Assembly: GCF_964194025.1 (NCBI RefSeq) | Contig: NC_134481.1 | Location: 38,440,001 to 38,504,000 of the forward strand | From: Convolutriloba macropyga | Lineage: Eukaryota | Length of the DNA stretch: 64,000 nt | Reading direction: 5' to 3' | Shown here: piece by piece, positions 15,001 through 50,398 of the stretch | Layout: every line of letters begins with the position of its first letter | Numbering within the stretch: position 1 is the first letter of the stretch | Made by a program: the position numbers and the translations under genes | Notes under the pieces: generated by a model | Told to the model about the DNA's origin: nothing | Database searches by the model: none | The model's input: the letters and a program-made list of their open reading frames with translations, nothing else

Positions 15001-15215
15001 TACCATTCGAGTTGCAGGTTTTTACGTGTTAACCATTCGACTAGCAAGTTTTTACAAATTAACCATTCGACTTGCAATTTTTTACAATAAACCATTCGAC
15101 TTGCAAGTTCGTACCAGTTAACCATTCGAGTTGCAGGTTTTTACATGTTAACCATTCGACTAGCAAGTTCTTACAAATTAACCATTCGAGTTGCAACTTC
15201 TTACAAGTTAACCAT
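1..15215. repeat. 30-bp satellite array (consensus about CAAGTTAACCATTCGACTTGCAAGTTCTTA), ~500 monomers, with higher-order repeats; continues off the left edge
   Basis: Continuous 30-nt periodicity. The ORF track shows 10-aa periodic peptides (QVNHSTCKFL, LTIRLASSYK). Near-identical blocks recur at 2041/2923/3804 (882/881-bp spacing). The array ends abruptly at about 15215. Confidence 0.98.
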
Positions 15216-16005
15216 TTCGGTCTCGACCCGGATTGCGCATTACGTTTCCAGAACATTTTTTCTAATGACCAGGTGTCACTCGGTGTTTCAATGCCCAATC
15301 GCCGTCGAGTTTGCCGATGTCGGTAATTGCACTCCTTCTTTTTTGACAGTTTTTGGGGTTCGTTGAATTTTCTTTTACCGGACGTCCTCGAACGTGATGA
15401 ATGAATTTCTGGTTGTTTTTTCAAGAACACCTAAGCTTAGATAGTAATTTGTAGTAAAAGTAGTTGGTGATGAATGCGGTTAAATTTAGATAATTTTAGT
15501 CACAATTTAGGTAAAGAAAAAAAAATGTTATAATTTTTTTCACCCCTTTCACCGTTTCTGCCATCTTTAATTGCATAACTTTGTTTGTTTTCTGTATGTT
15601 CAAAAACAATGTTCATAATGAATATTTATAACGCATTATAAACGCTGATTTCAGCGGTTGCATTATGTGTAAGTCGCTGCTAAAATTAAGCCATTTTACA
15701 TATTTTCTGTGGCTTGTAGCTCTGACTCGAAGATTCATTAATAATAATACATTGTTTACTGGTGTCTTTACAGAATAAATCGAACACTTACACAGTTGAT
15801 CAATACATATAAAAAAGAGCACCAGAAAGATCGCCATTAGACCATAAAGTCCGTTTTCAGGCGTCTCATAGTCGGAAGAGAAATTTCGTGTTATTTATTT
15901 CAAAGTTATTTAGTGGAAATCAAAATTAAAGTGATAGCGAGAAAAAAAGGAAGATTACTATTAAAATGATTTCAAATTGGTCATAAATTTTGTTGAATAA
16001 AGTTT

Positions 16006-20122: not shown

Positions 20123-20707
20123 AGTCCAGTCAATAATAATAGAGAAAAATAGAAAATCAATTCAGTTGTTTTGATCAATAAAAGACAAGAAAAGATTCTG
20201 TTTCGATAAGCTAGCTAATGCGTGAAACGGCCTGCGTAGTTTCTTTTTATAGACGTAGAAACATCAAGGTCAAAGAGAAGAAAGAAATAGAGCAACCGCT
20301 CTATATGAAAACTGAATTTATTTTGAGGGTATCAAAGAATAATTCGTTCATGTAACCTAGAAACGGGGGAATTTAAAACTCGTGCAAAATTTTGAATTCT
20401 TTTAGATGACGATGCTGTAACTTTTTCTGCGATTAAAATTAAAAGACAAAAATTGTCTTTGTTTGAAAAACGCCTGAAACTGATTTGTTTTGCATCAAAG
20501 TTTTCGGAATTTTTTTGCGGGTATTATACCAAAATTAAGGTTGACATAATATTTCCCCTTGGGTAAGATTCCTACAAGTTTTGAATTCTTCAATAACTAG
20601 GGTATGCTTTCGACATAGAGCTTAAAAACCCACTCATTATAAAATGTTATTGAGCAAGTTGCATTATTAAATTATTGAATTTGACGTTGTAAATTAATGA
20701 ATGTAAT

Positions 20708-21239
20708 TTACTGATCATTGTCAACAGCATTTTTAAAAGTAAAATTATTCAAAATGAAATCAATCCAGTCTTTAAAAGGCAAAAGTTTTGAAAAGTAGCT
20801 TCCATTATTGCAAAACTCCTCTGGAGTATTAGCCTTAGGAGCGGAAAAACTGGTCACGCCAACCAGACATTGGGGGCGTAAAGTCCCACATTCGAACCTG
20901 AACAAAGCCCCTCCATCGTCCAACAAACAAACATTGCTTCCAGTGAAAACGGGTAAAGTACAAACAATATCAACAGGACAAGCTTGCAAATTTTCCGGAT
21001 CAGCCGGCTGGAATAGAGTCTGTTTTAGGAAAATTTCCTTCAAAGTATTTGGGTACTGTTGGTGTCTGCGGGTTGTGGTAGTGGTACCCATTCCAACAGC
21101 GCCCAACAGGGTTCTGTCTAGATTGAATGAGGATTCTTCTAAGCTACAAATTGGAAGTGACTTGGAATAGGCGTTCAGAATTGGCCACCTGGTTCTGATA
21201 AGTGCAATGTTGTTCATCATCCGAGGTCTCAGCCGGAAC
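20708..21239 (-). CDS. Terminal exon of a trypsin-like (S1) serine protease homolog, predicted catalytically inactive
   Basis: NNIALIR (DIAL equivalent), LPIC, GMG, LKE, VCLLDDGGAL (GDSGG equivalent), CLVGVTSF, DWI. Acceptor TTCAG ends at 21240. Upstream exon(s) not identified. Confidence 0.8.
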
Positions 21240-23284
21240 CTGAATTATAACTATACTTACGCATTTATAAATTCTATATCTTGTGTTAGAATAAAGTCTA
21301 TATCTGGTGTTCATAAATCTCAAGTCTTCGATGTCTCGTACCTAGAATGACCTCTGATCTGACATTATCCAGACTTCCGCGCGTTCTTATCGCTGACCAG
21401 ACCTCGTAGTTATGGTTTGCTAACCTTGTTCCTTTAAATTGCGCCTGATCAGAGGTAATTTCAGCTTGCGTGATTCCTCAAGCTGAGTAGCTTTCACTCA
21501 AATACATGGGCTTATTGAACAAATTCAACTTTGACTGAATAAATATTTCCTTCTACGCTTGCATTACTCAGCCCCCCCCCCCCCCACCCCCACCCCCAAC
21601 CCCACCGAAATTAAAGTCCATTGTATTTCATTTTCAGCTATTTTTTAAGATGAGTTTTGGTCAAATATCGCATAACTTGTTACCAGATGGCAAAAAAAAA
21701 CTATGAGGGCAAGATAAAGAAAAGGAACTTAACAACATTTTAGTATATATGCTTTCTATTGCAATTGTAATTTGCAGTATAACGCAAAAGATGTAACCTT
21801 GGATGTATGAAGACATCACTGACACTGTAGAGTCCAATTGAGTCATTTCTAGCCGAGAAGTCTCCAATTTCAACCCGAAGGTCTTGATCTGAAAAATAGA
21901 TTGAAGAGAAATCAAATGAAAATCCAATCTACCGCAATCAATAATTAACTAATGAGCAGTTTTCGCAACAGGATGTTTCCTATTGCAATTGAAAAGTTTA
22001 GAAATAACAGAAAAAAATGAGAGTTCGGATTTTTTTATGGTTCATATGAGAATGGTTCATATGGTCTGTATCATGGTTGATTATTGTCTAAGTGGACTGC
22101 AAAAAGAGCAAAAACCCTAAAAAAGACGGAAAAAGAGTACACAACAAGTTAAAAGGTTTAATAAGTACAAAAGGAGCAACAAAAACAAACTAAAGTCATG
22201 ATCATGGCTGAATTCGGTGTTGATGGGTCTTACAACTAACACACACCTCAACCTGGGAACTGGTTTCAGTCTCTATTATGTCAGTTATGAACATATAGAA
22301 GAGCATTATGACTATTTGGTGGAGTATCAAATCATTCTCTCCTAATGATGATTTCATTTTTATTGTTCCGACCTCTCTTGAGGGGGGAGGAACTATATAC
22401 TCAAATGGGTTTTTTTGTTCAGACAATTTTCGCCGTTCGATATATTAATCGTAGAGAGTTGAGACTGGTATTATTAGAAAGCTTGTCCAGCGTAGAATAC
22501 GGAGTTAAAAAGATCTTTTCTAATTTCGTTTTTTTACAGGGAGTTATCGAGGTCTAAACTTCTGAGATCAGTAGAGTGAACTCCGTTGTTTTTAATCACA
22601 ATCTCCGGAATTTCTGCCTCAACTTTCGTCAATTTTGCAAAAATTTGTTGACATTTTTAAGAATAGTATTGTTGATTTTGTTTTCAAAGACAAAAAACGT
22701 ATTGCTGATTATTTTGATTTAATTTTTTGTCCAAAATTTGGACTAATTATTTCAAAATTCAGGCTTTTTCATCAAAAACAGCACGTAATAAGCTTTTTTA
22801 GTCCACTTTGATTGACTTTGCCGGAAGTAAAACCGAAAACCACACTAATACAATCTTTGTAGACTCAAAGGGGGGCCATTCCTTCTTCAAATTCTGTTGA
22901 GAGTGCTCAGTAATTAGAACTCTGCCGTTTTTTGCTAACTTTGCACGTTGATTATCAAAAGCGCAGAATTTAATTTTGAATTTTTAACTAACAACTTATC
23001 TATCTATAACAATCATAGAATTAAGTGTTCCTAATGGACGATAAGCATTAGCAGGGCTAGTTTTGAACCAATCTTGGAAAGTTACAAAACAAAAAGAAAT
23101 GGGATTGTAATCAGTCCATCTTTTTTTACCGATTTTTATCAAACTTATTAAAGAACAGAACAAATAATATCAAAACTCAGGAGTGATAGGTTCATGGGGC
23201 TTCCTCAACAGCTCCATGCTAATGTTTTTTGTTTCTTACTTGAAAGCTTATGGTTGTTTTGACTTTTAAAGATAATTGATTTAA

Positions 23285-25330
23285 ATAGATAATGGCTTAA
23301 TTAAATTTTTCTCTATTTTTTTTCTTAATTTGGTCAACTTGTAGCTTAGTGTCAGCAAAGAAAGAATGCTTCGCCTTTCTACTGATTTAAAATTTAACCC
23401 TTATTGCGGTTTTAAGCCTTAATTTATTGTTTTCTGGCTTTGATACTACTAGATTTCATATTTTTGTATTTTTGGATATTTTGCAGACTTTCACGTTTTC
23501 TAGTTTTGTCACTTTATTACCATATTGGCTTCTGAAATAAAGCACAATAAAGCACGCGTTTTTACGGCTTCGACAGTTCTTTCTTGAAGAGTTTAATTGA
23601 ATTTTTTCATATTATCTTTAACTATTGTTTCTTCTTTGTCTTTTTAGACGTATGAAATTTCCTGTATAATGACAGGTCTCACTGGCTTTTCAAGGAACAA
23701 TAGATGAACTGAAATTCTGATATTAGTAGATATCTCATGGTTTTCATGACTTTGAATACAATTTTTTCCCAAAATAAAAAAAAAACTTTAAGATTCGCAA
23801 TATTGTTCTTTCTACTTTATTTTTGTTACCTAATATCGTTAATTACAGGTCAAATATGACATTATTGGTGTCAAAGGAAGATGTCAAAAGGGATTGGTGC
23901 CACGAACTCTTATGTGTTAAAAAAAATTTGTTTTGACTACTGGCTTCGACACGGGTTTTTCACAATAAAGGAAACAAAGTCTCGTTTTTTGTCCTATTCG
24001 AAGTTTTTTTTGTAGACGTAAGACATATTCTGGATGATTGCAGGTCTCATGGGTTTCCTTTGGAAGAATAAGCGAACCTATTAAATTATTTCATTTTGTA
24101 ATTTATGGCTTTCATATTTTTGGAAATAATGCTTTTTCGAAAAAAAGAACAAGTATTACATAATTTTGCCCCTTCTTTTTTCTGTCTACTTGTTTTCTAG
24201 TTTCATTAATGAAAGGTCACAAAATGAAATATTTGATTTTTAATTAAAAAATGGCTTATTGAACTTTGCCTCCATTTTTCTCTTACTTTGGTCAACTTGC
24301 AGCTTAGTATCAGCAATGAAAGAATGCGTCCTCTTTTTACTGAATTGAGATTCAAATTTTATTACGGTAAAACGGTTTTAAGCTTAATTTATGGTTCGCT
24401 GGCTTTGATACAACTAGATTTCACATTAGAAATTAGATATTTTTTTTAGATTTTTGCCCATTTTTCATGTTTTCTAGTTTTGTCACATTATCACGTTATA
24501 GACAGTTCATATAATCACATTATTGGCGCTCAAAATAAGGCTAAAATGATCATATTAAAATGCTTAAAAATATAGATTATGGTTTTAACGGCTTCGACAC
24601 CACTTTCTTGAAGAAATTTATTGAATTTCATAATTTTGTCTTTTACTTTCGTTTTCACTTTGTCTTTTGAGTTGTATGAATTTTCCTGTACAAAAACCCG
24701 ATTTAATTGTCTTTTCATGGCAAAATAAATGAGCCGATATTCTGATATTAGTAGACAGCTGACGACTTTGGTGACTTTGAAAACAATTGTTTTCCAAAAA
24801 AAAAACTAACTTCGCACTTTTGTTCATTTATTGTTTGTTTGTTACCTAATCTTTTTAATTACAGGCCAAATTTGAGATTATTGTTATCAAGGGAAGGTGC
24901 CAAAAGGCATTGGTGCCACGGAATCTTATGTGTTTGAAGAATTCGTTATGACTACTGGCTTCTACACGGGTTTTTCAAAAAAGGAAACAAATTTTCGTTT
25001 TTGTCCTATTTGACGTTCCTTAAGTAGTCGTAAGACATATTCTGGATAGTTGCAAATCTCATGGGTTTCTTTTGGATGAATAAACGAACCTATTTAATTA
25101 TTTCAATTTGTTATCAATGGCTTTCACGTCTTTGGAAATAATGTTTTTTCGAAAAAAAAATAAGTATTACCTAATTTTGCCTCTTCTTTCTCTTCTTTGG
25201 CTACTTGTTACCTAGTTTAATTAATAATAGGTAACATAATACCTTATCGGTGTTCAACAAAGTAGCATTCGAACATATTTTGAGGGCCAAAATATAGCTT
25301 TACGGCTTCGAAAGCGTTTTCTGGCAAGTT
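23285..25330. repeat. Diverged ~1-kb tandem duplication built from ~350-375-bp subunits
   Basis: 23290 aligns with 24250 (TTGGTCAACTTG.AGCTTAGT.TCAGCAA.GAAAGAATGC) and 23860 with 24878 (ATTGGTGCCACG). A GGCTTC(G/T)A motif recurs at about 23566, 23942, 24590, 24957 and 25304. Confidence 0.8.
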
Positions 25331-26228
25331 TTAATTGAATTTTTTTTTGTAGTCTTTTTGTTGTTCTTTTTAGCCGCATTAAAAATAAAATAAGGACAGG
25401 TCTTATTGCCCTTCTATAAAGACATTGGTAATCGCAAACCTTCGGGATATTTTACTTGATTTCTAATGGTTTTCTTTACTTTGAATTTAATTGTTTAAAA
25501 AAAAACATTTTTTTTTTAATTTTACAGTTTTTGTTCTTTTTCTCTAATTGTTACAAAACGCTTTTATGGACCGCTCCCACATCATTTCTGGTGATTTATA
25601 AGTTGTTTTGTTTAGTTTCAATTTTATCTGACGGTACGTTGACTTTGTTTTTAAGTTTTGTTTTTTAAAACGGACACAAATTTTTGACGTAATTAAATTT
25701 GTTGTTGTTTGATTCTGCTGTTCGTCTTCACTCGCTTTCCTAATATTGGCATATCTCATCAATCTACTGCATCATTTTTTACTCCACTGAATTATTTGCT
25801 TTGGAAGCTATTTCTTCGTTAATACACTACTTTTTTGAAAAATAATTGTTTTTTTTTTGTTTTTTTTTGTTTTTTTTGGTTTCTTTTTGGATTCCAAAAA
25901 TTATTTTTAGGTTTTTCTATCGAATCTTCATTTGGTAGACAATTATGCTTATGTGGATGAGCGGGGTGGGAACCTTATGTGCGATTGCACATTACCGAGC
26001 CTTCTTGTTGTGTACTATTGTCAAATAGCATCCGTAATCTGGCAAAACCCATGCAGTTTTGACTACATTTGCGGCAAATTCAAGCAAAAAATCTTTAAAT
26101 TTGATTTTGGTTTTATCCTTTTTATGCATCCTTAATATTTTACTTGGTGTTTTGACTAATTTGGGTTTTTAGATTGTATTTCTTGAGCCAAAAAATTATG
26201 GCAAAAAAATGATACAATTTTTCAGCCA

Positions 26229-26428
26229 NNNNNNNNNNNNNNNNNNNNNNNNNNNNNNNNNNNNNNNNNNNNNNNNNNNNNNNNNNNNNNNNNNNNNNNN
26301 NNNNNNNNNNNNNNNNNNNNNNNNNNNNNNNNNNNNNNNNNNNNNNNNNNNNNNNNNNNNNNNNNNNNNNNNNNNNNNNNNNNNNNNNNNNNNNNNNNNN
26401 NNNNNNNNNNNNNNNNNNNNNNNNNNNN
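26229..26428. other. Assembly gap (200 N)
   Basis: Run of exactly 200 Ns, probably a placeholder size. Confidence 0.99.
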
Positions 26429-28926
26429 AGTCATATATTCACCAGAAGGGACTAGGGGTATTATTAGGTATTAAAGAAACAGCGGGTATCCAACTGTTGG
26501 GACATATGCTAATTACTCAATATCATGGGTCTTTTTTGAATTGGGTATATATTGAATTAGAAATTTTATTGTAAAATTGTGAATTGGGTATATAATGAAT
26601 TGGGTATTTTGATGCAAAAATTTGAATTTAATTATTTTGTTTGAAAAAAAATGTTTTACTAAAATAGTTTTTAATCAAAGATTTCGTTTTTTACATAAGG
26701 TTTTTAACGAAAAATGTAAATTTTAATGTTTTTTTTTCTATTTTTCCATTTTTCAGTTTTTGAAGTTTTTCCAATGTAAAATTTTCAATTTTATTGTTTT
26801 TATTAAAAAATATTGTTCTACTAAAATAATTTTATTTTCAAAAATGTCGTTTTTTACATAAGGTTTAACAAAAAATGTAAATTTTGTTGTTTTTTGTTTT
26901 TCTATTTTTACATTTTTCAGTTTCTGAAGTTTTTCAATGTAAATTTTTTAATTTAGTTTTTTTTCATTAAAAAGTGTCGTTTTACTAAAATAATTTTTTT
27001 TCAAAAATGTCGTTTTTCACAAAGTTTTTAACAAAAAATGTAAATTTTGTTTTTTATTTTTCTATTTTTGCATTTTTCAATTTTTGAAGTTTTTTAATGT
27101 AAAATTTTCAACAATTATTTTTTTATTAAAATATGTCGTTTTACTAAAATACTTTTTTTTTCAAAAATGTCGTTTTTTACATAAGGTTTTTAACAAAAAA
27201 TGTAAGCTTTGTTGTTTCTATTTTTCTATTTTTACAATTTTCAGTTTTTGGAGTTTTTTCATGTAAAATTTTCAATTTAGTTATTTTCATTAAAAAGTGT
27301 CGTTTTACTAAAATAATTTTTTTTTCAAAAATGTCGTTTTTCACAAAGTTTTTAACAAAAAATGTAAATTTTGTTGTTTTTTATTTTTCTGTTTTCACAT
27401 TTTTCAGTTTTTTAAGTTTTTTAATGTAAAATTTTCAATTTATTTACTTTTTTTCATTAAAAAATTTTGTTTTACTAAGAATTTTTTTTTTCAAAAATGT
27501 CGTTTTTACATCAGGTTTTAACCAAAAATGTATTTTGTTGTTTTTTATTTTTCTATTTTTCCATTTTTCAAATTTTGAAGTTTTTTCATTTACAATGAAA
27601 AAACTTCAAAAGCTGAAAAATGGAAAAATAGAAAAATAAAAAACAACAAAATACATTTTTGGTTAAAACCTGATGTAAAAACGACATTTTTGAAAAAAAA
27701 AATTCTTTTAGTAAAACAAAATTTTTAATGAAAAAAGTAAATAAAATGAAAATTTTACATTAAAAAATTTAAAAAACTGAAAAATGTGAAAACAGAAAAA
27801 TAAAAAACAACAAAATTTACATTTTTTGTAAAAAACTTTGTGAAAAAACGACATTTTTGAAAAAAAAATTATTTTAGTAAAACGACACTTTTTAATGAAA
27901 AAAATAATTAAATTGAAGATTTTACATGAAAAAACTCCAAAAACTGAAAAATGTAAAAATAGAAAAATAAGAAACAACAAAGTTTACATTTTTTGTTAAA
28001 AACTCATGTAAAAAACGACATTTTTGAAAAAAAAAGTATTTTAGTAAAACGACATATTTTAATAAAAAAATATTTATTGAAAATTTTACATTAAAAAACT
28101 TCAAAAATTGAAAAATGCAAAAATAGAAAAATAAAAAACAAAATTTACATTTTTTGTTAAAAACTTTGTGAAAAACGACATTTTTGAAAAAAAAATTATT
28201 TTAGTAAAACGACACTTTTTAATGAAAAAAAACTAAATTAAAAAATTTACATTGAAAAACTTCAGAAACTGAAAAATGTAAAAATAGAAAAACAAAAAAC
28301 AACAAAATTTACATTTTTTGTTAAACCTTATGTAAAAAACGACATTTTTGAAAATAAAATTATTTTAGTAGAACAATATTTTTTAATAAAAAACAATAAA
28401 ATTGAAAATTTTACATTGGAAAAACTTCAAAAACTGAAAAATGGAAAAATAGAAAAATAAAAAACATTAAAATTTACATTTTTCGTTAAAAACCTTATGT
28501 AAAAAACGACATTTTTGAAAATAAAATTATTTTAGTAGAACAATATTTTTTAATAAAAAACAATAAAATTGAAAATTTTACATTGGAAAAACTTCAAAAA
28601 CTGAAAAATGGAAAAATAGAAATAAAAAACATTAAAATTTACATTTTTCGTTAAAAACCTTATGTAAAAAACGAAATCTTTGATTAAAAACTATTTTAGT
28701 AAAACATTTTTTTTCAAATAAAATAATTAAATTCAAATTTTTGCATCAAAATACCCAATTCAATATATACCCAATTCACAATTTTACAATAAAATTTCTA
28801 ATTCAATATATACCCAATTCAAAAAAGACCCATGATATTGAGTAACTAGCTTATGTCCCAACAGTTGGATACCCGCTGTTTCTTTAATACCTAATACCCC
28901 TAGTCCCTTCTGGTGAATATATGACT
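26429..28926. repeat. ~2.5-kb imperfect palindrome (3-nt loop at 27591-27593) whose arms are tandem ~163-bp AT-rich units
   Basis: AGTCATATATTCACCAGAAGGG at 26429 is the reverse complement of the sequence ending at 28926. Centre reads AAGTTTTTTCATT-TAC-AATGAAAAAACTT. CAAAAATGTCGTTTTT recurs every 160-166 bp. The right arm has one extra ~168-bp unit. Confidence 0.93.
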
Positions 28927-28939
28927 CATTCTAACAAAT

Positions 28940-29432
28940 TTGTTGTTAAGGCACTATCTTGCTAATCCCTTTCGTGTGAACAACTTGGGTATCATGCTGT
29001 GAGGTACGTCTTTGGAATCTGACATTAGTAAAGTGCAACGTGATAAGGGTAAATGATCTAACTAATTTTTGAAGGCACTATCTTGCTAATCTCTTTCGTG
29101 TAGCATCTTGGGTATCATGCTGTGAGGTACGATTTTGAAAATTGGCATTGGTAGAATGTATTATGGTAGGGGGTCAATGACCTCACTGATTTGTTGTTAA
29201 GGCACTATCTTGCTAATCCCCTTCGTGTGAACAGCTTGGGTGTCATGTTTTGAGGTACGTCTTTGGAAAATTACATTATTAAACTGCAATATGGGAATGG
29301 GTAAATGACATTACTAATTTAATATTTAGGGATTATCTTGCTAAACCCCTTCGCGTGAACAGCTTGGGTATCCTGCTTTGAGGTACGTCTTTGGTATTTG
29401 AGGTAAAATGGGCTATACGTAATCTTTATACA
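28940..29432 (+). repeat. ~127-bp tandem array (4 units)
   Basis: The unit core ATCTTGCTAATCCCCTTCGTGTGAACAGCTTGGGTATCATGCTGTGAGGTACGTCTTTGG recurs in units starting at about 28950, 29074, 29201 and 29329. The array ends in AAAATGGGCTATAC. Confidence 0.92.
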
Positions 29433-30002
29433 TTATCATTTTTATATTTTTTTAATGTTTTTTTGTTTAAAACTAATTTTTTACGGCACTATCTTGCATT
29501 GTTTCACATAAAAAATAATGAAAAACGAAAAAAAATTTTTATATGAAGTTTTAAACAAAGAAACGTGTATATTGTTTTTTTTATTTTTTGGTTTGTTAGT
29601 TTTTGATGTTTTTAAGCTACTTTTGTTCAATTAAATTTTTTTATTGTTGTTTTTTCTTAAAATACACGTTGACTCAAAATATCGTTTTTGACATAAGGTT
29701 TTCAACAAAAATTGTGTTTTTTAATTTTTTCTCCTTTTCAAATCTCCAGTTTTTGAAGTTTTCGAATATTTTTTTTAATTTAGTTTTTAAGATTTCATTT
29801 CACTGTGACCTTTTAAACTGAAATTTCTTGGTTCCCAATATCTATTATTATTTGGAAAACTAGTCAATTTCTAGCATTATTCTGCCATCATATAATCTGC
29901 AGCGAGCTAATCATATTCCAATGGGACCTTTCTCTGATTTAAAAAGTAGTAAAATAAGAACAATTACAAAACGATCTCAAATACAATTAGAAATTACAAA
30001 TA

Positions 30003-30470
30003 TTATACGTTATCAAAATGATCAAGAGTCCAAATTCCGAAAGCATAAGCTTTCTTCTCTGCACAGTGAAAGGTTTTTTCGTGTCGATACGGATAGTTGC
30101 TGCAATCCCAGTCAGTATCCAAATTGTTGAGAAGTTCGGAAATTTTTGGACAACCAAGATCATCTAGATTCTCCACATCTTTACACAAGTAATTTGAGAG
30201 GAGATTACATTTCTCCAACCCTTTCGCAAGATATTCTGTTGTAGGTGAACAATAAATGTGAATGACTGATGACAACTCAATATATTCCAGTTTTCCACTG
30301 CTCCAATTGATCCCATGTAAATTTTTAGTGTTCCACTTTGCTTGAAAAGTAGGTTGGTAGTCTTTGGGTGGCAGGAAACTGAATCCCAAAACAATTCCGT
30401 CCTTGAAAACACCCAACTCCTTAACAATTTTCCCCTCCAAGCACTCAATATCAAATACAACGAGAGACAT
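30003..30470 (-). CDS. 155-aa putative DEDD/DnaQ-like nuclease-fold protein of the type carried by Polintons and related viruses
   Basis: Intact ATG-TAA ORF with VFDIEC, VKELG, FLPP, HGINW, KGLEK, NLDDLGCP and a C-terminal C..H...HCA motif. Family assignment is by motif recall. Confidence 0.65.
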   Translation of the reverse strand: MSLVVFDIECLEGKIVKELGVFKDGIVLGFSFLPPKDYQPTFQAKWNTKNLHGINWSSGKLEYIELSSVIHIYCSPTTEYLAKGLEKCNLLSNYLCKDVENLDDLGCPKISELLNNLDTDWDCSNYPYRHEKTFHCAEKKAYAFGIWTLDHFDNV

Positions 30471-31259
30471 TCCTTTTTCTAGATTACAATATCAAAAAAT
30501 GATTAGCAGTCTAGTCTTCTGAAAAATTGAGGATGGAAAAGTTTAATAAGAACAAAAAAGATTAACCCAGTTAACCCATGAAACATGAGCTGAGAAAATT
30601 TGGTAACATGTAACATTATCCTGGACCCTTCGGCAGAATCGTGCAGTACAGCATGTAATCGAAAAACTTTCAATCTAGTAAAGAAAAAGTCAAGAAAGGA
30701 ACTTGCTTAACCAATAAGTCCTCCATGAGAAAATTTTTGGTCATTTTATTCGGAATTTATATTTTTGTCCCATATTTTACAGGCTGATAAGAAAGAGTTT
30801 TTGCGTTTTTCATTTTCGGGAAACCATGAAAGTATGTTTCCGTAAAAATTGAATATGTTGACAAGAATAAAACTACCAAAAGATATGACTGGAACTACTA
30901 CTTTTGGTAGTTACTTTTGGTGAATTGAGCAAAAGATGAGATCTGGAAGCAGAAAATAAGAAAACCTGGATGAATAAGGGTAACTGAACAATGTAAGGGG
31001 AAAGAAACAAATGACTGAAATATCTTGAAAATTAACCTCGATATATCGAGCCAATGAAACTTAATTAAAACACAGAAGAATTGGGAACAACAAACCTCGT
31101 AGCCGATAAGATCTTATAAAACATTTTGTTAAGTCAATGAAAGTTGTGTAGAAAATGATTTAGTGTTTGTCATTTCTGTTTTTAGTAAGGTCACGTGATG
31201 TTAGTAATGAGTTTTTCATTAGTCAAGTGAGGGAGAGTATAGCGAGGCATACCAGCAAG

Positions 31260-31694
31260 CTAGATTGTACTAAGGTTGGTTCCGACAGACTTTAGTGAAG
31301 TGTTTTTAACAGCCGACGCTCCCTGTACCTCTTTCTTTGCATCTTGCCCAGTTTCCGTAGAAAAACACGACAAGGGAGCTGTCTGGTCAAATTTTTTCAT
31401 GCCAAACTTGGGGTCAATTGCGTTTTCTTCTTCTCTACTTGCAATAAAACTCTCTGTCAGTGACAGTGACCCATTTTCCCACTCGTCACAATCCTTATCA
31501 GGTTTCTGCAAATTTTCAAAGTCGTCAGACAAACACCAGAGGAATTTAAGTTCTCTCTCCTGCTCAAAAAATCCGAGTAAATTTTTATACATTGGTCTAT
31601 AAGACAACTCATAGTCACAAAAATGTCCACGGACGAATCTGCTTAGTTCCATGTTGTCTGAGACTTGTAAAGTTTTGTTTTGGATGTGGGTCAC
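31260..31694 (-). CDS. Hypothetical 144-aa ORF inside the putative Polinton remnant; probably the 3' part of a disrupted longer ORF
   Basis: Coding-like composition in AT-rich surroundings, co-oriented with 30003-30470, non-ATG start, no recognised motif. Confidence 0.35.
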   Translation of the reverse strand: MTHIQNKTLQVSDNMELSRFVRGHFCDYELSYRPMYKNLLGFFEQERELKFLWCLSDDFENLQKPDKDCDEWENGSLSLTESFIASREEENAIDPKFGMKKFDQTAPLSCFSTETGQDAKKEVQGASAVKNTSLKSVGTNLSTI

Positions 31695-32139
31695 ATGATT
31701 TCAATGACCCCATACTATACCTAGGTATCTGTAATTCGGTAATTGTGGTAATCATACGTCTTAGTTGACCTACATTTTGTTGAGCGGCTCCCGTGCAAGG
31801 ATGAAATCACCTAATTGTCCGTATTTGCGAAGACAGTATGATGTGATTTTTTTGGTATTAGGACTTAATTGATACATTTTACGACTAATTTCTAACGATA
31901 GTGAAAAATTCCTGATAAATTTGTGCTCATAAAACCTCTATCGATCACCTGAGAAGATTCGCTCTTACAAAAGAAGATGTCAAAGGTTGATGTTTGTAAG
32001 ATCACTAAATAATTGGATTGACAGAATGAATTTAAATAAATACAGATGATGGCAAGTTGTATAATTTTTGATATATTTTGGATAAATATTTGATAAAATT
32101 TTGTTATATTGCTTATAATTTGGTTGTTTTTCGACAATA

Positions 32140-32830
32140 CTAAAGAAAATTGGGTAAAATTTGAGTATTTTTGACAAGATTCAGCTACTTTTGGTAAATA
32201 TAAGTGGCAGGAATTGGACAGTTTTTAATAGAATTGTTTCGGTTTTGATAGGAATTAGGTTTTTTTTGGCAAAAATGTAGTTTTTTTTGGTAAGAAATGG
32301 CTATTTTCAACCTGTATTGGTTAATTTCTTTTAAGGTTTTGGAAAGTGTTTGTCAGAATTGGGCATTTTTTTCAAGAATTGGGGATTTTTTTTTTATCAA
32401 GAATTGGGTTTTTTGGCAAGAATTGGGCATTTTTAAGCAAGAATTTGATATTTTTTGGCAATAATTGGATAATTTTTTGTAATAATTGGCTTTTTTTTGG
32501 CAGCAATTGGGTACTTTTTAGCAAGTTTTGTGTAGTTTTTAGACAGAATTGGGTATTTTTTAGCATGAATTGGGTAATATTTTTGCATTTTTTGCGTATT
32601 TTTTAGATAAAATTGGGTATTTTTGGCATGATTTGTGTTTTTCTCAAGAATTCGATATTTTTAGCAGGAATTGGATATTTTTGGCAAGAATTGTGTTTTT
32701 TTAAGCAAGAATTTGGTATTTTTTGGTGATAATTGGATAATTTTTGGTAACAGTTGTCTATTTTCGGCAAGAATTCGGTACTTTTTAGCAAGTTTTGGGT
32801 AATTTTTAGACAGAATTGGGTATTTTTTTA
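32140..32830 (+). repeat. ~20-21-bp minisatellite (about AAGAATTGGGTATTTTTTAGC)
   Basis: Repeated GAATTGG(G)-T-run units. The GAATTGGGTA core also occurs in the palindrome arms (26538-26610). Confidence 0.85.
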
Positions 32831-32844
32831 TCTACGCGGGATAA

Positions 32845-34050
32845 TATTATTAAGGGATTATCTTACTAATCTACTTCGTGTCAACAGCTTGGGTATCATG
32901 CTGTGAGGTACATTTTTGGAAATCACGTAAGCCGTACGTAACTGTAAATGAGTCACCCTATCTAATTTAATATTAAAACATTACCTAGCTTATCTCCTTT
33001 GTGTGAACAGCTTGGATATCATACTGTGAGGTGCGTCTTTGGCAATTGACATTAGTGAAGTGTAATATGGGAATGGGAAATTGACCTTCTTATTTTGTTA
33101 TTAAGGGATTATCTTGCTAATCCCCTTCGTGGGAACAGCTTGGGTATCATGTTGTGAGGTACGTCTTTGGAAATTGACATTAGTAAAGTGCAATATGGTA
33201 GGGGGTAAATGACCTTACCGATTCGATGATAAGGCACTGTCTTGCTAATCCCCTTCGTGTGAACAGCTTGGGTATCATGGTGTGAGGTGCATTTTTGAAA
33301 AGTCGTACGTAACTGTAAATGACTCATCCTAAATTATTATTAAAGGATTATCTTGCTAATCCCCTCGTGTGAACAGCGTGGGTATCCTGCTGTGAGGTAC
33401 GTCTTTGGTAATTTACATTATCAAAGTGTGTAAAATGGAAGGGGCTCAATGCACTATCTTACTAATCCCCTTCGTGTGAACAGCGTGGGTATCATGCTGT
33501 GAGGTACGTTTTTGGGAATTTACATTAAGTGTAAAATGGTAGCGGGTCAATGACCTTACTGATTTGTTGTTAAGACACTGTCTTTCTAATCCCTTTAGTG
33601 TGAACAGCTTGGGTGTCAAGCTGTGAGGTACGTCTTTGAAAATTTACATTATTAAAGTGCATTACGGTAGGGGGTCAATGCCCTTGCTGATTTGTTGTTA
33701 AGGCACTATCTTGCTAATCCCCTTCGTGTGAACAGCGTGGGTATCATGCTGTGGGGTACTTTTGAAAATCACGTAAACCGTACGTAAGTGTAAATGAGTC
33801 ACCCTATCTAATTTAATATTAAAACATTACCTAACTGATCCCCTTTGAGAGAACAGCTTGGGTGTCATGCTGTGAGGTACGTCTTTGGAAATTTACATTA
33901 TTAAAGTTGAATATGGGAATGGGTAAATGGCCTAATTTAATATTAAGGGATTAACTTGCTAATCCCCCTCGTGTGAACAGCGTGGGTATCAAGCTGTGAG
34001 GTACATCTTTGGGATTTGAGGGAAAATGGGCTATACCTAATGTTAATACA
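32845..34050 (+). repeat. ~105-128-bp tandem array (~10 units), same family as 28940-29432, two interspersed unit variants
   Basis: Same core. One variant carries ACATTAGTAAAGTGCAATATGGTAGGGG and the other carries CGTACGTAACTGTAAATGA. It ends in AAAATGGGCTATAC like the first array. Confidence 0.93.
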
Positions 34051-34406
34051 TAGGTACTTCCTTTTACCCCCCCCCCCCTGTCTTGCTTAACTATTACTAC
34101 TAATGTCATATATATTGTTGGTAATATTCTGATCAGTTTCAAAATACATTTAGTGAACTCCATTATGAGTCTAGCTACCTTCGCTTAATGACATCTGAAA
34201 TTGACGCACGTTTGGTTTTTCTGACCAAATCTTGAAAAAATAGAATAAAATTCGTCAACCCTTATCCTTTAAACGCATTCAAGTCCATTCATGGGAAAAA
34301 TTCCAATAACACTTCTAAACAAACAATTGAACATTTTAATTCTCTATTATATAAAAAAGAGGAAAAGGCTTTCCTCTCTCGAAAAGAGCTGAATTTGATA
34401 ACCAAC

Positions 34407-35270
34407 CTTCACGACATGCCTGAATCCTCGTTGAATCCGATGTTGATCCTGCAACCTTGCTCTTACAACTTGGTATGGATAGGTCAAGACAACAGCAAAT
34501 AATTTCGAAGACGCTGAAAAGAGCAAATACCACTTGGTGGCCAACTTGACTGAATTCGTATCAACGTCGAACTTCCTCGAGTACCACTTTTTCATTTCTT
34601 CATAAGCCATGAATTGAAAGGCTCCATGTGAGACACCGAGCAAGCCCGCTGAAAACCCACTATAAAGACCTCGTATTCCTTCCAACTTGTAGGTTTTAAC
34701 CAGACAATCAACAAAACCTCTGTATAAAACTTGACTTCTCGGTTTTAATAAGCTTTCACTGGCTGCGTGATTTGATTCATATTGCAAACAAAGTCTAGTT
34801 TTTGTCACCCAGATTGGGTTAGTCAAAGCCAGAGTAACAGCTCCGGATTGTGCGGCAGATAACATGTGCATTCCAGGTGATAAACTTTTAACACTTGTTC
34901 CGTTCTTATTTTTGCCGTAAATTTTCTTGGACGCATTGTAAAAGTAAAAATAAAGTCCCCATGAAGCGCTAGCACCTATGATGTTAGGAGTGACTCCTTG
35001 ATAGAACCCGAAAACACCTCCGCCCGAATAAATAGACTTGCAAATGTGGCGAATGCTTTCATAGTAAGGTCTGTTCTTGAAGCCATCGTTGACAGCCAGT
35101 CTTATTTTGACAATGTCGAGAGGATGGCAACATAAAGTGGACACGACGCCTCCCGTGACACCAGAGACCAAGTCCACTGCTTTGAAGTTGAGCAGGAAAT
35201 CACCCAATGCATATTTAGGGACCTGCATCAAGTCCACTATCTGAAATGGCACCTTATCACACAGTTTCAT
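34407..35270 (-). CDS. SLC25A32: Mitochondrial folate/FAD carrier (SLC25 family), first coding exon; C-terminal exon not found in window
   Basis: Three carrier signatures (HPLDIVKIRLAV, NPIWVTKTRLCLQY, YPYQVVRARLQDQH) plus GFYQGVTPN, WGLYFYFYN and GVSHGAFQFMAYEEMK. Homology stops at the likely donor AAG|GTTGGT (34407/34406). Confidence 0.9.
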
Positions 35271-41223: not shown

Positions 41224-44200
41224 TCACAAGTAGAGTTTCAGAAACTTCAAATCAGTTTGATTAACCGACGATTCACTTTCCAGTTTTCGTTTGATAGATT
41301 TAGATTTTGAGGCTTGCAATCTGCGATCATTAACTGTTGGTATAAACTGTTTTGTTAGTGTATAGTATTTAGAGGCAGAGCAAGTGAAAGTCTTCTGCGA
41401 CAAAGTTTCCTTTCCCAATCTTCTACCATAAAATTGATTCAATTCCGTCCTATTGCATCGGAAGATATCTACATTATCCAGCTCCACAACTTGATCACCT
41501 GCACAACTTTCGTCATTCAAAGCGTAGAACAAAGTCTTGAGCCAATTTTGCTCTTCCAGTTCGTCGTAAGCTAGATTTCCACTTTCTGAACGCAAAACTT
41601 TCCAATTAATGTTGCCTGACTTTACGTTCTCTTTGTTGTCCAGGCACCATTGCTGTTTCTGGCACAGCTGGATTTTATCCAAAGATTGAAAATTGGAGAA
41701 GAAAGTGAGACATTGGGATGTCAAATGGTGGTTGCAGCACAGTGATAGATACCTTAGCCTGTCTAAGCATCCTAAAAACACACAACTAAAATTTGTTGAA
41801 ACAAATCATTTTTTTCAAAATTCAGCTTAAAAGAAGTATTTCGAATGCTATTAACCATTTAGTGGCCTGACAAAAACTTAAAACGCCAGAACACTATTCA
41901 CAATTTAGTAGAATATTTCTTTAAAAAATAGAGAATTAAAGTAGAATATTTCTATTGATAACAATCTGCTGATCGGGGCTACTTGGTTCAGACATAGGTT
42001 TGCTCAACCTACCAGATCTAAACAGTCGAAAGAAGTCGCATACAAGTTAAGCGAGTTGGTAAAAAAAGAAAAGAGCAAAAGTGCGCTATTGTTGACGCCA
42101 GTGCAAAGCCAGGAAAGAAAGGTGATTCCCACGAAATGTTGAGGTCTAATCGTCTTAGAAAAAACGACAGCATCGAAATTTTTCACGTTTGAACAATCTG
42201 AAAATTATGGTTACGTGGTTGTAATAAGTTTGGTCATAGGTATACGTGCAGCCCACCAGTTGTCGGACGAAGTTTTACCGTATCATCATCATGTCTTCTT
42301 TTCGTTCAGATACAACAGCTACTTAAACCATGTGAGAAGTAAAACAGGTACATGAACTGCATCTCATGAGGAATCAATCGTTGCTAAATGAGTATAAAAC
42401 AGAAAGTCTTCTTGAGTTGCCGCGAAACTTAATTCATCTGAACGGAAAAAAAACGGCGCGGCCCTGGCTACCAAAACCATCAATACTGCTCGCGGAAAAG
42501 TCATTGTTGCTCGAGAAATCAATGGAATATTAGAAAAGGACAGATGAGAATGTGCTTCAATTAGTGAATTACTGATTGAAACATAAACCGACAAATGTCG
42601 GAAGAATTGCTCTTGAACGACAGGTGATGCGAACCACTGACCTCTCGATCCATGGCCACCCTCACTAACCACTGCGCTACAAGTCAGTTAATTCTGCTAC
42701 GCTGCAACCGATTTTATATTAGCAACTTCGGAGCAATAGAGATCACTCAAAAATGATGAACGAAAGCGTGAAAAAGTCACTTGAGAAGTCAAAGAATGTT
42801 CTAGAAGAAAAGCGCAAAATTGTCAAGCGAAAACTTTGCATAAAAAAGACACACGTTTACAATAATTGCTATGAACTGCGTTCAAGAGCAATTAAAAACC
42901 TACTGCTGTTCTTAAATATTAACTGCATGGCGAGGGGGTCCGCAAGCAATTCAATTAAAACCTGAAGCTAAAATTTGAGAATGGTGCTCTAGCAGTCGTG
43001 AAACTTTCATGGAAAAATCTTTGCAGTGCATTTAATGTCTCCTGTCTGAGAATGGATAACATGATGCAAAGGAATCAAAACACAAGCAGGCAGGCAACAG
43101 TTTGGACAAATCATTAAGATGAGGCTTTCAATAAAACGATAAAAACAGGAGAAGTAGAGAAAAAGAGGAGGCTTTGCTTGAGTCGGACTGGAGAAAAGCA
43201 GAGAAGTTTGGCTCGAAAATAATGGGTTTTGAGAAAAACTAATAGGGCCAATTAAAGGTCTTCACTTTTTCAATTAGCCTAATTGCTGTCATAAACTTAT
43301 TAAACAGTTTCAGAGAATGTCTGATGTCGGCGAACTTGCCAATGGGTTGACTATCCCCAGTGACCAGATGCCAATAATTTCCCAACCTGGTACAGCAAGT
43401 ACTGAGAATGAGCCCCCACTCCCCGATCTGCGTTTTCACGATCAAACACCGTTATCCAAGCCTCGACAACAAAAGACCTCGACTTCTGCTAGGATCTTCT
43501 CCAATTGAGGAAGATAATTCAGACGACGCAAGAATACAAAAGTTTGTTGACGAAGCCATCCAAAAAAAACATCAAGCATGCTGCCAAATATTGTGGCATC
43601 ACTGCAGACAGAAATCAAAGACACTTTATCCAATGCTTTAACGAAAGCCGTGTCAGACATGAAGGCAGAAATAATGGGGGAATTGAGGGAGGATATAGTT
43701 TTCGTTGACAAGAAATCTGAACTGAAGACATTGTGTGAAACAGAACAACTGGAAACCTATAATAGACGCGATAACCTTAAAATTCTTGGAGTCAATGAAC
43801 ACCTGCATGAGGACGGCCACTTAGAAACACCATTAGAAACAATTGAAAAAGTTCTCAACGTTTCGAACATCATTGAATCAAAAGTAACTGCGAACGACAT
43901 CTCCATTGCTCATCGCCTTGGCACGAAAAGTACTGCTCGTCCAATAATAGTCAAGTTTTCGCGACGCATTGCTAAAGTAAACATGCTGACAAGTAAGAAG
44001 AAACTCAAAGACAACCCCCTGGACAACAACGTACGGATCATTGAGGATATCAGTCGATCACGAGTCAAGTTCCTCAATCTAATGCAAACCGATGCCCGAA
44101 ATGCTTCCGCATGGACCAAAGAAGGAACAGTATTCTTCACGGAGCCCAACAGTCAGCAAATCAACAAGTTCAACAACCTCTATGATGGAGGAATCCTACT

Positions 44201-47200
44201 CAATTATAGCTTGGATGATGTTTTGTACTGTTTTCGGAACAACTAACATAAATAATTCAAAAAATGTTACTGCTGCAGTTCCGAATGTGCCTTTAAAAAC
44301 CAAAGTTTCTGTTATGCATCTAAATGTACGATCTCTAAAGCCGCACTATGAGAAACTGGAAGCGTTAATTTTGAGTCTTGAGTCTCCACCAGACGTAATA
44401 TGTCTGACTGAAACTTGGGTAACTGCAAATGAGGATCCAAAATGTTATTTGTTACCGGGATATAGACAGTAGTTCGTTTTTCGAAACCGATAATCAACAG
44501 GTGGAGGAGTAATGATGCAATTACATGAAAATTGCGTGCTACTAGGCGAGAAAGATAGTCCATTTGAAGAGAGCATTTTATCAGACATTTCAATTCATGG
44601 GCATACATACTCCTTTCTGACTCTATACAACAAACCAAGTTCAAATAAACAACTGTTTCTTAATCAATTAGCCCAATTCCTTGAGCAAAACGCTTCTCAT
44701 TCAACTCCTATGATCATATGTGGAGATACTAACATCGATGTTCTCAAAAATAATACACTTATCAAAAACTATCTCAATATAATAACGGCTAATGGTTTTA
44801 ATTGTTTCGCTGATGAACCCACCAGAGAGACAGAAAACACCTCCACCTGCCCGGATCATTTTATTTTCCAAAATATAAATCTGACACGTTTTTCCGTATT
44901 GAAAGAAGAGTATATCTCTGATCATTACCCGGTAATAATAGAATGGGATTCAAGTCAACTCGAAAAGCCCGAGATCTCATTTCGTGACACGTCCTTCTTA
45001 AAAAACAAATCATTAAATGATGAATTTCTTCAAAGACTGGGCGAAAGCCTTAGTGCTTGTAATGAAAAAATTTTCACCGAAGAGGAGCCTGGCTCTGCTT
45101 TCAATAAATTCAAAAACATCTTCAAAAATACTTAAATCTTTTTGCACCTATCAAGAGCTTTAACAAGCCAGCATGTAGAACTCCAAAATGGTTTACCAAC
45201 ACCCTTAAAATTCTGAGAGCAAAAAGAAATCGCGCGCACCTGAAACAAACAAAATCCGCATAACGAAGAATACCTAAAAAAAATTTAGAGAATTACGTGA
45301 CAACTTTGAACCAGCTGTTAAAAAATCTAAAAAGAAGTTTTACTGGGATAAGTTCAAGGCATGTATTGGAGACTCAAGACAAACTTACAAACTTTTAAAT
45401 GATTTACGAGGTTCAAGTAGCGACGCTCAAACTGTCCCTGCTCTCACATCGTGTTTGCTGAGGCAGTCGGAGCCTACCGCTGAGGATATAGCAGATAAGT
45501 TTAACCATTACTTTACATCGATCGCCAAAGACATTAAAGCTGCCCTGCCTGAAACAGCTCTACCAGTCTTACCTTCTGTGGAAAAGTCGATGTTTCTATA
45601 TGAAGTGTCAAATGCTGAAGTTAAACTCATAATTGATCAGCTGGATAACAAATCATCTTCTGCTGATGATAATGTCAACAACTTAATCGTAAAAGCATCT
45701 GCGCCTGTGGTAATTCCTTACCTAACGCATCTGATAAACAAATCGTTCTCACAAGGAATCTTCCCATCAGAACAAACAAAAGCCAAAATCCTCCCATTTC
45801 ATAAAGATGGAGCAAAGACCGATGAATCAAACTATAGCCCAATTTCACTTTTGTTAACCTGGAGCAAAAAATATGAAAGCGCTATGTACAACAGAAAGTA
45901 TCAGTATTTAGAAAAATTTTCACTCCTACATTCCAAACAATTCGACTTCCGATCAAAACATAGTGCAATCGATGCAATTGTTCAATTGACCGAGCGTGCA
46001 AAACTACTTCATGGTAAAAATTATTATAGATTTTTTCTTGACCTTAAGAAAGCTTTTGATACCCTTGATCATTCTATACTTCTTTATAAATTAGAAACCT
46101 ACGGCATCCGTGGCATTTGTCTTAAATGGTTTCGCTCCTACCTAACAAATCGAAAACAGCGCGTTGAAGTTAATGGTGTTTTCTCTGGATGGCGAAACAT
46201 ATCCTGTGTGTCCCCCAGGGCTCTATATTAGGGCCCCTCCTCTTCTTAGTTTATATCAACGACTTACCCCGCTCATGTCCATCAGCCGGGGTGCTTCTTT
46301 CTGCCGACGATACAAACCTAACTGCTATTAACTGCCAAATAAACAACTTACAAAACGATCTTGCTAGTCTCAATAATTGGCTGAATGCCAATAAACTTGT
46401 TCTTAATATGTCTAAAACAGTTCAACTGAACATTAACATTAACGCTTCCAGTTCGTTCTCACTTAATAACTGTGTAGTTCAGGTAAAACCTGTATGCAAG
46501 TAATTGGGCACTTACATTGATAATAAGTTCTCCTTTCAATCGCATATTGATTTTGTTAAAGTGAGACTCGGTAAACAAAGTGGTATTATATCGAAGCTAC
46601 GACACTATGTACCTAGAGCTAACTAACTACTATCGTACAACCGTTGTACCAATAGTTCAGTATGGCCTTTTAGTTTACGGTTGCTGTAGTTATAAATCAT
46701 TAGAACCCTTATATATCCTTCAAAAGAAAATTTTGAAGTTCATTTACTTCCGCAAAAGACGCGAAAACTGTGATATATTTCAAAGCAATTATTTATTAAC
46801 AATATATGAGCTACACCTCTATGAACTTCTCAAATTTGTTCTTATATCGCTTAAACAACAACATTGTCCAACTTTTTAAAACGATTTATTTAAGTTTTCA
46901 GAATCTAACCCAAATACACGCCGTACATCAGCTGGATTATTAGCAGAACCATTCTAAAAAAGACAAATTGACCGATTTTCTGTTAGATATTGTGCGACCA
47001 AACTTTTCAAGACAAATTGACCGATTTTCTGTTAGATATTGTGCAACCAAACTTTTCAACAAGCAAAAAACCTGTGGCGTCATTCCACACATATTAGATC
47101 TGCCCTTTTCAAAAATTTCACATTTGTATGATAATTGGGAAGACATATATATACTACAAAACCGTGAATTGATTAAACATATTTTTGATATTTAGCTTCC

Positions 47201-49471: not shown

Positions 49472-50398
49472 TTACTTTTTGCGTTTCTTCGTAGATCTGA
49501 GAGAAACGCCTGTTCCTTGAAATGGTTTGAAATCAGGAACATCGCTTTCATCGTTTTTGTTCTTTTCTTCAGCGCCTGTACTCGTCTTGCTTCTTATAAA
49601 ATTTATTTTGCCCGGCTTGTAATCGTAATTTGGAATTCCACGTTCAATCACTTTTGAGGGATCCAGTAATTTTGGATTAGCTTCCGTGTTTTTCTTTTCC
49701 CCGTCCAACCGATTTCCTCTTCCTTGGAATGCATGGAAAAGTTTTGCTTGTTCCGCTTTCTTAATAGCGTCAATCCTTTCTTGTTCATTGAGCTGTTCCT
49801 TCTGTTCACGTGTTAGCACTTCCGGTTCTTTGTAGCCAACCGGTTTTTCAAATTCGACGTTCATATCGCACTTAATAATCGAAACAGCTGGCGGTGGCTC
49901 AACTGCTACAACTAGCAACTCATAAACTCGATCATTATAATGAATTGCAATAACATCATTGCAAGTCAGACAAGCAAAATTTCTCAAACTGTTTTCAAGA
50001 ACTGCCTTTGGATTAGTTATGTCCAAGAAATCGGCACTTTGCGGCTGGAACTTCCCAAATGTTGCAGAAGGAAGCGAAACAGATTCAATATCTACAAGTT
50101 CACCCTCCTCTAGAAGCAAATTTTTCATCATCCAGTACGGAATGTAGCATTTTCCTTCTTCCGCGATAAACTCTAACACGCCACAATTTGTTACTCGACT
50201 TTTTCTTTTGTTCTGCAGTTTAAAAAGCATCGGGTAGTCAATATTCAAGCGTGACAGAAGCTCCAAAGCAGTTGGAGGCAGAATAATTTTGCCACCCTCT
50301 TCAACTTCCGGTCTCTCGCTTCCTGGCATCATCGACACGGAAAAGCATTTGTACTGTGTTTTGAATGTTCTTCCAAGGGCAGGATAAAAATGAAACAT
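49472..50398 (-). CDS. UFD1: Ubiquitin fusion degradation protein 1 (p97/Cdc48 cofactor), intronless CDS, 308 aa from the ATG at 50398
   Basis: GGKIILPPTALELLSRLNIDYPMLFKL, CGVLEFIAEEG, PYWMM, QPQSADFLDITNPKAVLENSLRNFACLT, and two SHP-like boxes (FQGRGNRL, FQGTGVSL). Confidence 0.97.
   Translation of the reverse strand: MFHFYPALGRTFKTQYKCFSVSMMPGSERPEVEEGGKIILPPTALELLSRLNIDYPMLFKLQNKRKSRVTNCGVLEFIAEEGKCYIPYWMMKNLLLEEGELVDIESVSLPSATFGKFQPQSADFLDITNPKAVLENSLRNFACLTCNDVIAIHYNDRVYELLVVAVEPPPAVSIIKCDMNVEFEKPVGYKEPEVLTREQKEQLNEQERIDAIKKAEQAKLFHAFQGRGNRLDGEKKNTEANPKLLDPSKVIERGIPNYDYKPGKINFIRSKTSTGAEEKNKNDESDVPDFKPFQGTGVSLRSTKKRKK

Follow-up and report, generated by a model that had tools for sequence, protein, structure and literature searches.

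What kind of mobile element ends at position 34101 of a 64,000-nt window from the genome of Convolutriloba macropyga (contig NC_134481.1, positions 38,440,001 to 38,504,000)? Positions given here are those of the window unless prefixed C15, C13, C3 or C1, which are contigs of the same genome (G000). An earlier note, made from the letters of this DNA alone, took 26429-34107 for a rearranged, composite remnant of a Polinton/Maverick element with satellite-filled ends. The right boundary at 34101 is exact, and the left boundary at 26429 is an assembly break, not the end of an element. The element is a palindrome of 13,245 bp (length by arithmetic), with arms of 6,508 and 6,734 bp, the missing arm of which lies 135 kb away on a flipped scaffold piece. 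It belongs to a family of palindromes of 11-21 kb with target-site duplications (TSDs) of 6 bp and a common tip. Such a palindrome is likely to be a fold-back satellite of the end of a core Polinton, copied and integrated by core Polinton enzymes through a hairpin intermediate that would equalise the arms.

The right end of the element was read correctly in most respects. The minus strand from 34101 opens with AGTAGTAATAG, followed by a G-run, and the assignment to a Polinton/Maverick terminus is supported by the (AGT)2//(ACT)2 end motif and the 6-bp TSD. The array of about 125 bp (units of 124-128 bp) does occur in two copies, an outer one and an inner one at 28931-29394. The subterminal AAAATGGGCTATAC motif common to both arrays is found at 29405 and 34023 and at no other place, and only the outer array reaches the terminus, given that the subterminal fragment of the inner array has neither G-run nor terminus. 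A minisatellite is present as described, with 22.8 copies at 32355-32828, but its period is 21 bp rather than 20 bp. Two co-oriented open reading frames (ORFs), of 155 and 130 aa, lie on the minus strand, and the fold-back palindrome consists of two inverted blocks of a 164-167-bp satellite.

The left arm was recovered beyond a second 200-N gap, at C15:38600562-38600761. The first 2,530 bp past this gap are the reverse complement of 26429-28958, at 99.8% identity, and the stretch that starts there closes with a terminus at C15:38608864, adjoined by the reverse complement of AATGTC, which is the TSD predicted from the right end. Because of the reverse overlap and of AATGTC at both ends, the 134-kb piece C15:38466429-38600561 was most likely, and most simply, placed in reverse by the assembly. 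A pair of unrelated half-elements is rejected, and so is the gap itself as the site of the left end. The host gene provides an independent check of the flip. A frame at 34347-35270 that matches Pfam Mito_carr lacks its end, and the last exon of this carrier gene lies beyond the element, at C15:38609051 on the plus strand, where a canonical acceptor precedes it, such that the reverse-placed piece splits the gene. A 984-nt contig from run X5, which comes from another sample and study, contains the window exon up to 34406 and then the last exon. The element therefore sits in the last intron of the carrier, which without it would be 485 bp, and the gene is spliced across it. A 220-nt X5 contig also crosses the junction of element and flank, with 33 bases in the element and no differences; contigs from X1 and X3, with no more than 28 bases in the element, are not taken as bridges. 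A real inversion of 134 kb is less likely: each edge of the piece is a gap, and splicing of the carrier gene follows the flipped order. A search for matching sequence across the other junction of this piece found none. Among the matches listed, there was no empty-site allele in four runs and no RNA run matching the flank query. In two runs, the summed contig depth over 34020-34101 was 2,000-3,000 times that of the flank, a figure that is not a copy number and that hints at a very large load of such ends.

The palindrome is not peculiar to this locus. When the arm was searched against its own genome and the best 40 of 561 candidates were scored, arm copies were found as inverted pairs. One module order is common to the 13 loci with both arms, several of which contain internal duplications or gaps. 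The inner 125-bp array is present in all PAL-1 copies mapped, and in one copy the 125-bp array is expanded to 5.3 kb. Twenty palindromes were parsed and both ends could be read in 18, of which 15 have perfect TSDs (one obtained after allowing an extra AGT) and three have TSDs with one mismatch. The flanks and TSDs differ among these 18 loci, showing multiple independent insertions of the palindrome as a unit. Module order, palindrome and tip are therefore the standard build of a multi-copy family, and the one-off rearranged remnant is rejected. Sister subfamilies keep the 164-bp centre and the 21-bp repeat but vary in whether they have the 125-bp array and ORF155. In many of them, both arms contain an intact frame of 300 codons, which is a longer relative of ORF130. 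Several copies hold other material. At C13:2484001-2512000 (L190-L192), a core Polinton of another family is apparently nested between palindromic arms, a segment resembling a long terminal repeat (LTR) retrotransposon is inserted in the copy at C1:17022880-17027300 (L068), and segments of 2-4 kb of no assigned type lie inside the copies L107 and L110.

Each palindrome could instead be an independent, dead-on-arrival fold-back of a one-armed or conventional source, integrated once and not propagating. This is quite improbable, although it would account for arms that are identical at birth, and an independent fold-back of a polymerase end does exist. A search with the 300-aa gene gave 1,093 candidates, from which 124 places at 89 loci were tallied. 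More than one match was present at 31 of the 89 loci, as a convergent pair in 30 of the 31 and as a divergent pair in none. The remaining 58 have a single scored match, which is in favour of one-off fold-backs, but all six of the single-match loci that were opened (L170-L175) lie beside assembly gaps or contig ends. The tip also argues against separate origins. The same 3-nt loop was found in 10 of the 13 copies searched, nine of these ten carry a mismatch 17-19 nt from the loop, and the tip sequence, together with this asymmetry close to it, recurs unchanged from copy to copy and in a second subfamily. Finally, no source of these modules that is not a palindrome was found in 22 core stretches; neither the 164-bp nor the 21-bp repeat is present in the 14 family A and eight family B stretches examined.

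The termini tie the palindromes to core Polintons. A search of the genome with 33900-34300 (332 matches, from the best 40 of 917 candidates) agreed with the prediction that similarity among copies should stop at the terminus: the 41 best non-self rows comprise 34 that end at 34101-34108, five that stop earlier near the G-run, and two that continue 15-27 bases further. Nine terminus pairs were fetched. Six enclose core Polinton genes, as the earlier note had expected of some copies, two are palindromes like the present element, and one is a 10-kb palindrome of a polymerase end. The core Polintons bounded by the same termini are 16-21 kb long, with polymerase, integrase and ATPase genes. In family A, Pfam matches were obtained for rve (E 2.4e-8) and Pox_A32 (E 1.2e-8), with weak protease matches, and a 1,485-aa protein has the motifs of family-B polymerases (PolB). 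A search of the PDB with the polymerase sequence returned only zinc fingers. A homologue search with the capsid-like ORF returned 134 relatives, none named, and the capsid names, presumed from the gene order, are confirmed by no library. The terminal 89 bp of the present element are 90-99% identical to those of family A, the terminal 24-mer is identical in some core copies, and the parts in common are the terminus and the 125-bp array (0.8-1.6 kb of terminal inverted repeat, TIR), along with a weak 290-bp match to the middle segment. The suggestion that TIRs seed satellites is not demonstrated: the 125-bp array is a normal part of the TIR of the core family, but no free-standing satellite derived from this array was met, though no search aimed at one was made. 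The polymerase-end palindrome (L072/L073, C3:68014436-68024614) derives from family A, with arms 97% identical and the TSD TCCTCC, and has a duplicated right end 2.6 kb further on.

The last 24 nt contain two variable modules, found in 14 combinations among 18 palindromic copies, and both ends of a copy are always of the same type. These modules occupy terminal positions 7-14 and 19-24, and free recombination has combined them anew in core elements and palindromes alike. They are possibly variants of the replication origin.

The genes in the arms come from Polintons as well. ORF155 and ORF130 are the only ORFs of at least 80 aa from an ATG inside the element, and genes for ATPase, protease, major and minor capsid proteins, pPolB and rve are absent, which supports the non-autonomous status proposed earlier. 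Both ORFs are of Polinton origin. The AlphaFold model of ORF155 (pLDDT 84) has an RNase H-like DEDD fold, and its top Foldseek matches in the PDB all belong to DEDD nucleases (best E 3.8e-4). Of the acidic residues, the first two, D7 and E9, are conserved, as are Cys/His and K140; by comparison with the arenavirus NP, the last catalytic Asp would be expected at the position of K140. A sequence search of the PDB with the ORF155 alignment returned only matches with E>0.4. The best named structural match is an uncharacterised protein of Drosophila adintovirus 2 (E 4e-8, TM 0.66), and ichnovirus ORFs were also matched. ORF155 may correspond to the adintovirus/Polinton accessory gene labelled MAEL in the supplement of PMC8502044. 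In core family B, the homologue of ORF155 adjoins the ATPase gene (8 of 8 loci of that class) and is 91% identical in nucleotides, and the arm is therefore a chimera. The ratio of nonsynonymous to synonymous substitution rates (dN/dS) is 0.15 against family B. ORF155 is near neutral among the palindromic copies (dN/dS 0.72, seven copies), and the copy in the partner arm is broken by a 51-bp insertion and a stop; ORF155 is probably decaying cargo.

A homologue of the 300-aa gene, 43-51% identical, is the inward-pointing gene after the protease in three core Polinton loci, and the distant homologues of the 300-aa gene include one from another genome. Its first 150 codons have dN/dS of 0.13-0.16 between subfamilies, and the rest 0.7-1.6; for the whole gene, dN/dS is 0.47 among ten close copies. 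This selection may partly date from autonomous ancestors. The predicted structure of the protein has a pLDDT of 32, and Pfam gave no consistent family, with the best family in four of 28 members. A Viral_Rep match in one of 28 members at E 0.054 was rejected as support for a Rep. PHROGs gave no match for the protein, nor Pfam for its distant homologues, and the ESM Atlas held no entry for three proteins tried.

The two arms of a copy have private variants in common, as a count of variants in four segments of 10-13 copies shows. Variants found in both arms of exactly one copy number 165, those in both arms of several copies 17, and those in one arm of several copies 11. The excess of private two-arm variants (165) over side-specific ones (11) suggests that the arms have been repeatedly equalised. 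In a tree, the two arms of a copy are sisters in 11 of 13 cases, ten with strong support, and the arms of the present copy share private changes 55-90 nt from the loop. Its private two-arm variants include those at 31682, 31699, 31716, 31793, 31842, 31985 and 32124. It is very unlikely that fold-back reads, chimeras of amplification or polishing produced the palindromes or their arm identity. Gaps interrupt many copies, the orientation of the local piece is wrong, and the exact short-read contigs used for the polishing question did not cover the private two-arm sites. Yet each of the 18 copies lies between unique flanks and matching TSDs, arms are 0.3-2.5% divergent and also differ by indels, the host gene is spliced across the element, and the 220-nt contig from a different sample spans its junction.

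The favoured explanation, a helper-dependent satellite, would begin with one end of a core Polinton folded back on itself. We infer this origin from the arms, each of which is laid out like a core Polinton end, with the terminus, the repeats and an inward-pointing terminal gene; that the polymerase end also occurs as a palindrome of 10 kb, flanked by a different TSD, is counted in its favour. The common ends and the TSD length make mobilisation in trans by helper proteins likely. The helper pPolB would copy from either terminus, and the displaced single strand would snap back into a hairpin of about 6.5 kb, or the new strand would turn just past the tip. In the hairpin, differences between the arms would be repaired or overwritten, with the mismatch 17-19 nt from the tip escaping, and the helper rve integrase would insert the copies. 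Termini and gene cassettes would be exchanged among co-replicating Polintons, with the 125-bp array as a likely substrate for crossover.

Several observations weigh against this explanation. Pfam DNA_pol_B did not match the 1,485-aa protein, nor any Pfam family the capsid-like ORFs; the names polymerase and capsid rest on motifs and gene order for this reason. Neither an extrachromosomal form nor an empty site nor a new insertion was observed. One core element (L064/L065, C13:6952632-6969549) has two different terminal types inside one TSD, and over the first 160 nt from the tip there is no general signal of side (7.7% for own, 7.8% for the same side and 8.7% for the opposite side). In the variant count, 20 variants are mixed, present in both arms of some copies and in one arm of others, and 409 are in single arms. 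By segment, the sister arm is the nearest sequence in only 7 of 13, 9 of 13, 3 of 12 and 7 of 10 copies, a weaker result that is expected because the copies differ in age. Lastly, divergence is uneven along the arm in four of 13 copies (p<0.05), most clearly in the present copy, where it ranges from 0 of 548 to 4 of 171 sites (p 0.0009). A full copy-back in each cycle would not give such unevenness, whereas conversion in place would.

That last point leads to an alternative with the same element and the same helper, in which replication is faithful and the arms are equalised after insertion by chromosomal gene conversion, as in the palindromes of sex chromosomes. In addition to the uneven divergence, the mixed variants are in its favour, and two-arm variants show no obvious fall with the age of the copy. 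It is nevertheless unlikely, given that all 18 copies have the same terminal type at both ends although 14 types exist, common to other elements; such matching ends need elements to exchange them and then to equalise them down to the last base. Moreover, the mismatch at the tip persists while variants 55-90 nt from the tip have been equalised.

How the palindromes relate to known systems depends on the feature compared. As given in PMC8097293, the end motif of Polintons is (AGT)2//(ACT)2 or (AG)3//(CT)3, and the sizes reported in PMC8097293, PMC10748475 and PMC6431247 are 12.7-24.6 kb for the elements and 46-1,447 bp or 100-1,500 bp for their TIRs. The present element is like these in its ends, its 6-bp TSD, its size and its two accessory genes, and the size of the palindromes overlaps that of the core elements. 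Unlike a Polinton, it lacks polymerase, integrase, ATPase, protease and capsid-like genes, and its inverted repeat is the whole element, with arms of kilobases around a 3-nt spacer. With the end motif and TSD of a Polinton but neither the genes nor the TIR size, it is therefore classed as a non-autonomous derivative rather than as a Polinton proper. The non-autonomous Polintons of Repbase are, as far as is known, internal deletions or lone TIRs. TIR-only Polinton insertions in Caenorhabditis elegans are described in PMC11414722. The present element is like such derivatives in keeping the cis ends, such that helper enzymes would be needed, and differs from them in that one end is mirrored to near the full size of an element, with genes kept in both arms.

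The palindromes may also work like snap-back or copy-back defective viral genomes, which PMC13506859 describes mainly for negative-strand RNA viruses, where they are transient. In both, one end of the parent is present twice in inverted orientation, the origin occurs twice and a helper is, as we infer here, required; the present palindromes are DNA, integrated with TSDs, inherited and diversified into subfamilies. The equalisation of arms per copy and the asymmetry of the tip fit self-annealed replication, and the uneven divergence also fits conversion. Foldback DNA transposons such as Drosophila FB likewise have very long inverted arms built partly of tandem repeats, with a cut-and-paste transposase. 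They are mentioned in PMC6431247. The ends, the TSD length and the genes tie the present element to Polintons and not to such a transposase. No description of whole-element palindromic Polintons was found in the literature searched, though Kapitonov and Jurka 2006 and the Repbase reports could hold one. What is added by the locus are arms that carry genes, a test of arm equalisation based on counts and accompanied by a tip mismatch that persists, termini built of modules, and proof of the true arrangement from a host gene.

Table. Features of the palindromic element and its surroundings, with the basis of each assignment.
Feature	Position	Strand	Basis
Right arm, centre and inner 1.16 kb of left arm of the 13,245-bp palindromic element	26429..34101		2,530-bp overlap, arithmetic
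Rest of left arm	C15:38603293-38608864		Overlap with piece past next gap
200-N scaffold gap, left edge of the 134-kb piece most likely placed in reverse	26229..26428		Gaps, split host gene, TSD
164-bp satellite, left side of central palindrome, 6 units	26612 to about 27585-27590	+	
Palindrome tip, 3-nt loop TAC	27591..27593		
164-167-bp satellite, right side of central palindrome, 7 units	about 27589-27594 to 28741	-	
Inner 125-bp TIR array and subterminal fragment without G-run and terminus	28931..29436	+	
ORF155, predicted DEDD-type exonuclease fold, captured from Polinton family B	30003..30470	-	AlphaFold, Foldseek, 91% nt
ORF130, truncated middle part of the 300-aa gene	31260..31652	-	65% over 144 aa to 323-aa frame
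21-bp minisatellite	32221..32828	+	
Outer 125-bp array, TIR body common to core Polinton family A	32840..34012	+	
Terminus, consisting of (AGT)2 end motif, variable modules (one of 8 nt, one of 6 nt) and G-run	34013..34101	-	
TSD AATGTC	34102..34107	+	Identical hexamer at partner end
Host mitochondrial carrier exon (Pfam Mito_carr)	34407..35270	-	Last intron holds element

Other repeats surround the element in the window. About 505 copies of a 30-bp satellite form an array at 4-15216 that is strongly GC-skewed, and a 5.9-kb repeat at 20313-26228 ends at the gap, has a reverse copy at C15:38535529-38540466 (84-93%) and contains a 170-aa ORF for which Pfam gave no match. An intronless ORF of 308 aa at 49472-50398 may be UFD1-like. 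Inspection of the ORF list also revealed broken frames resembling a non-LTR element (endonuclease/reverse transcriptase-like) at 43578-46879 and an LTR retrotransposon at 60833-63984.

A bolder extension of the satellite reading, put forward tentatively and doubtful as it stands, is that the palindromes are satellite replicons of polintoviruses, with snap-back genomes of full length. They would replicate as hairpins on the protein-primed polymerase of the helper, with arms re-equalised in each cycle and a selected terminal gene, and would capture further helper genes and shuffle origin modules to track their helpers. If so, the integrated palindromes would record a single-strand intermediate of Polinton replication that has never been observed. 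To our knowledge, the copying of Polintons has been modelled from sequence and never seen, and a whole-element inverted repeat would make each insertion a readout of that copying, in its equalised arms, surviving mismatches and swapped ends. In these palindromes, DNA analogues of snap-back defective viral genomes would have become heritable, gene-carrying parasites. For the host genome and its assembly, the palindromes cause scaffolds to break or flip and host genes to be split, as happened here, and long double-stranded RNA is likely to arise from an inverted repeat of 13 kb in an intron whose splicing continues.

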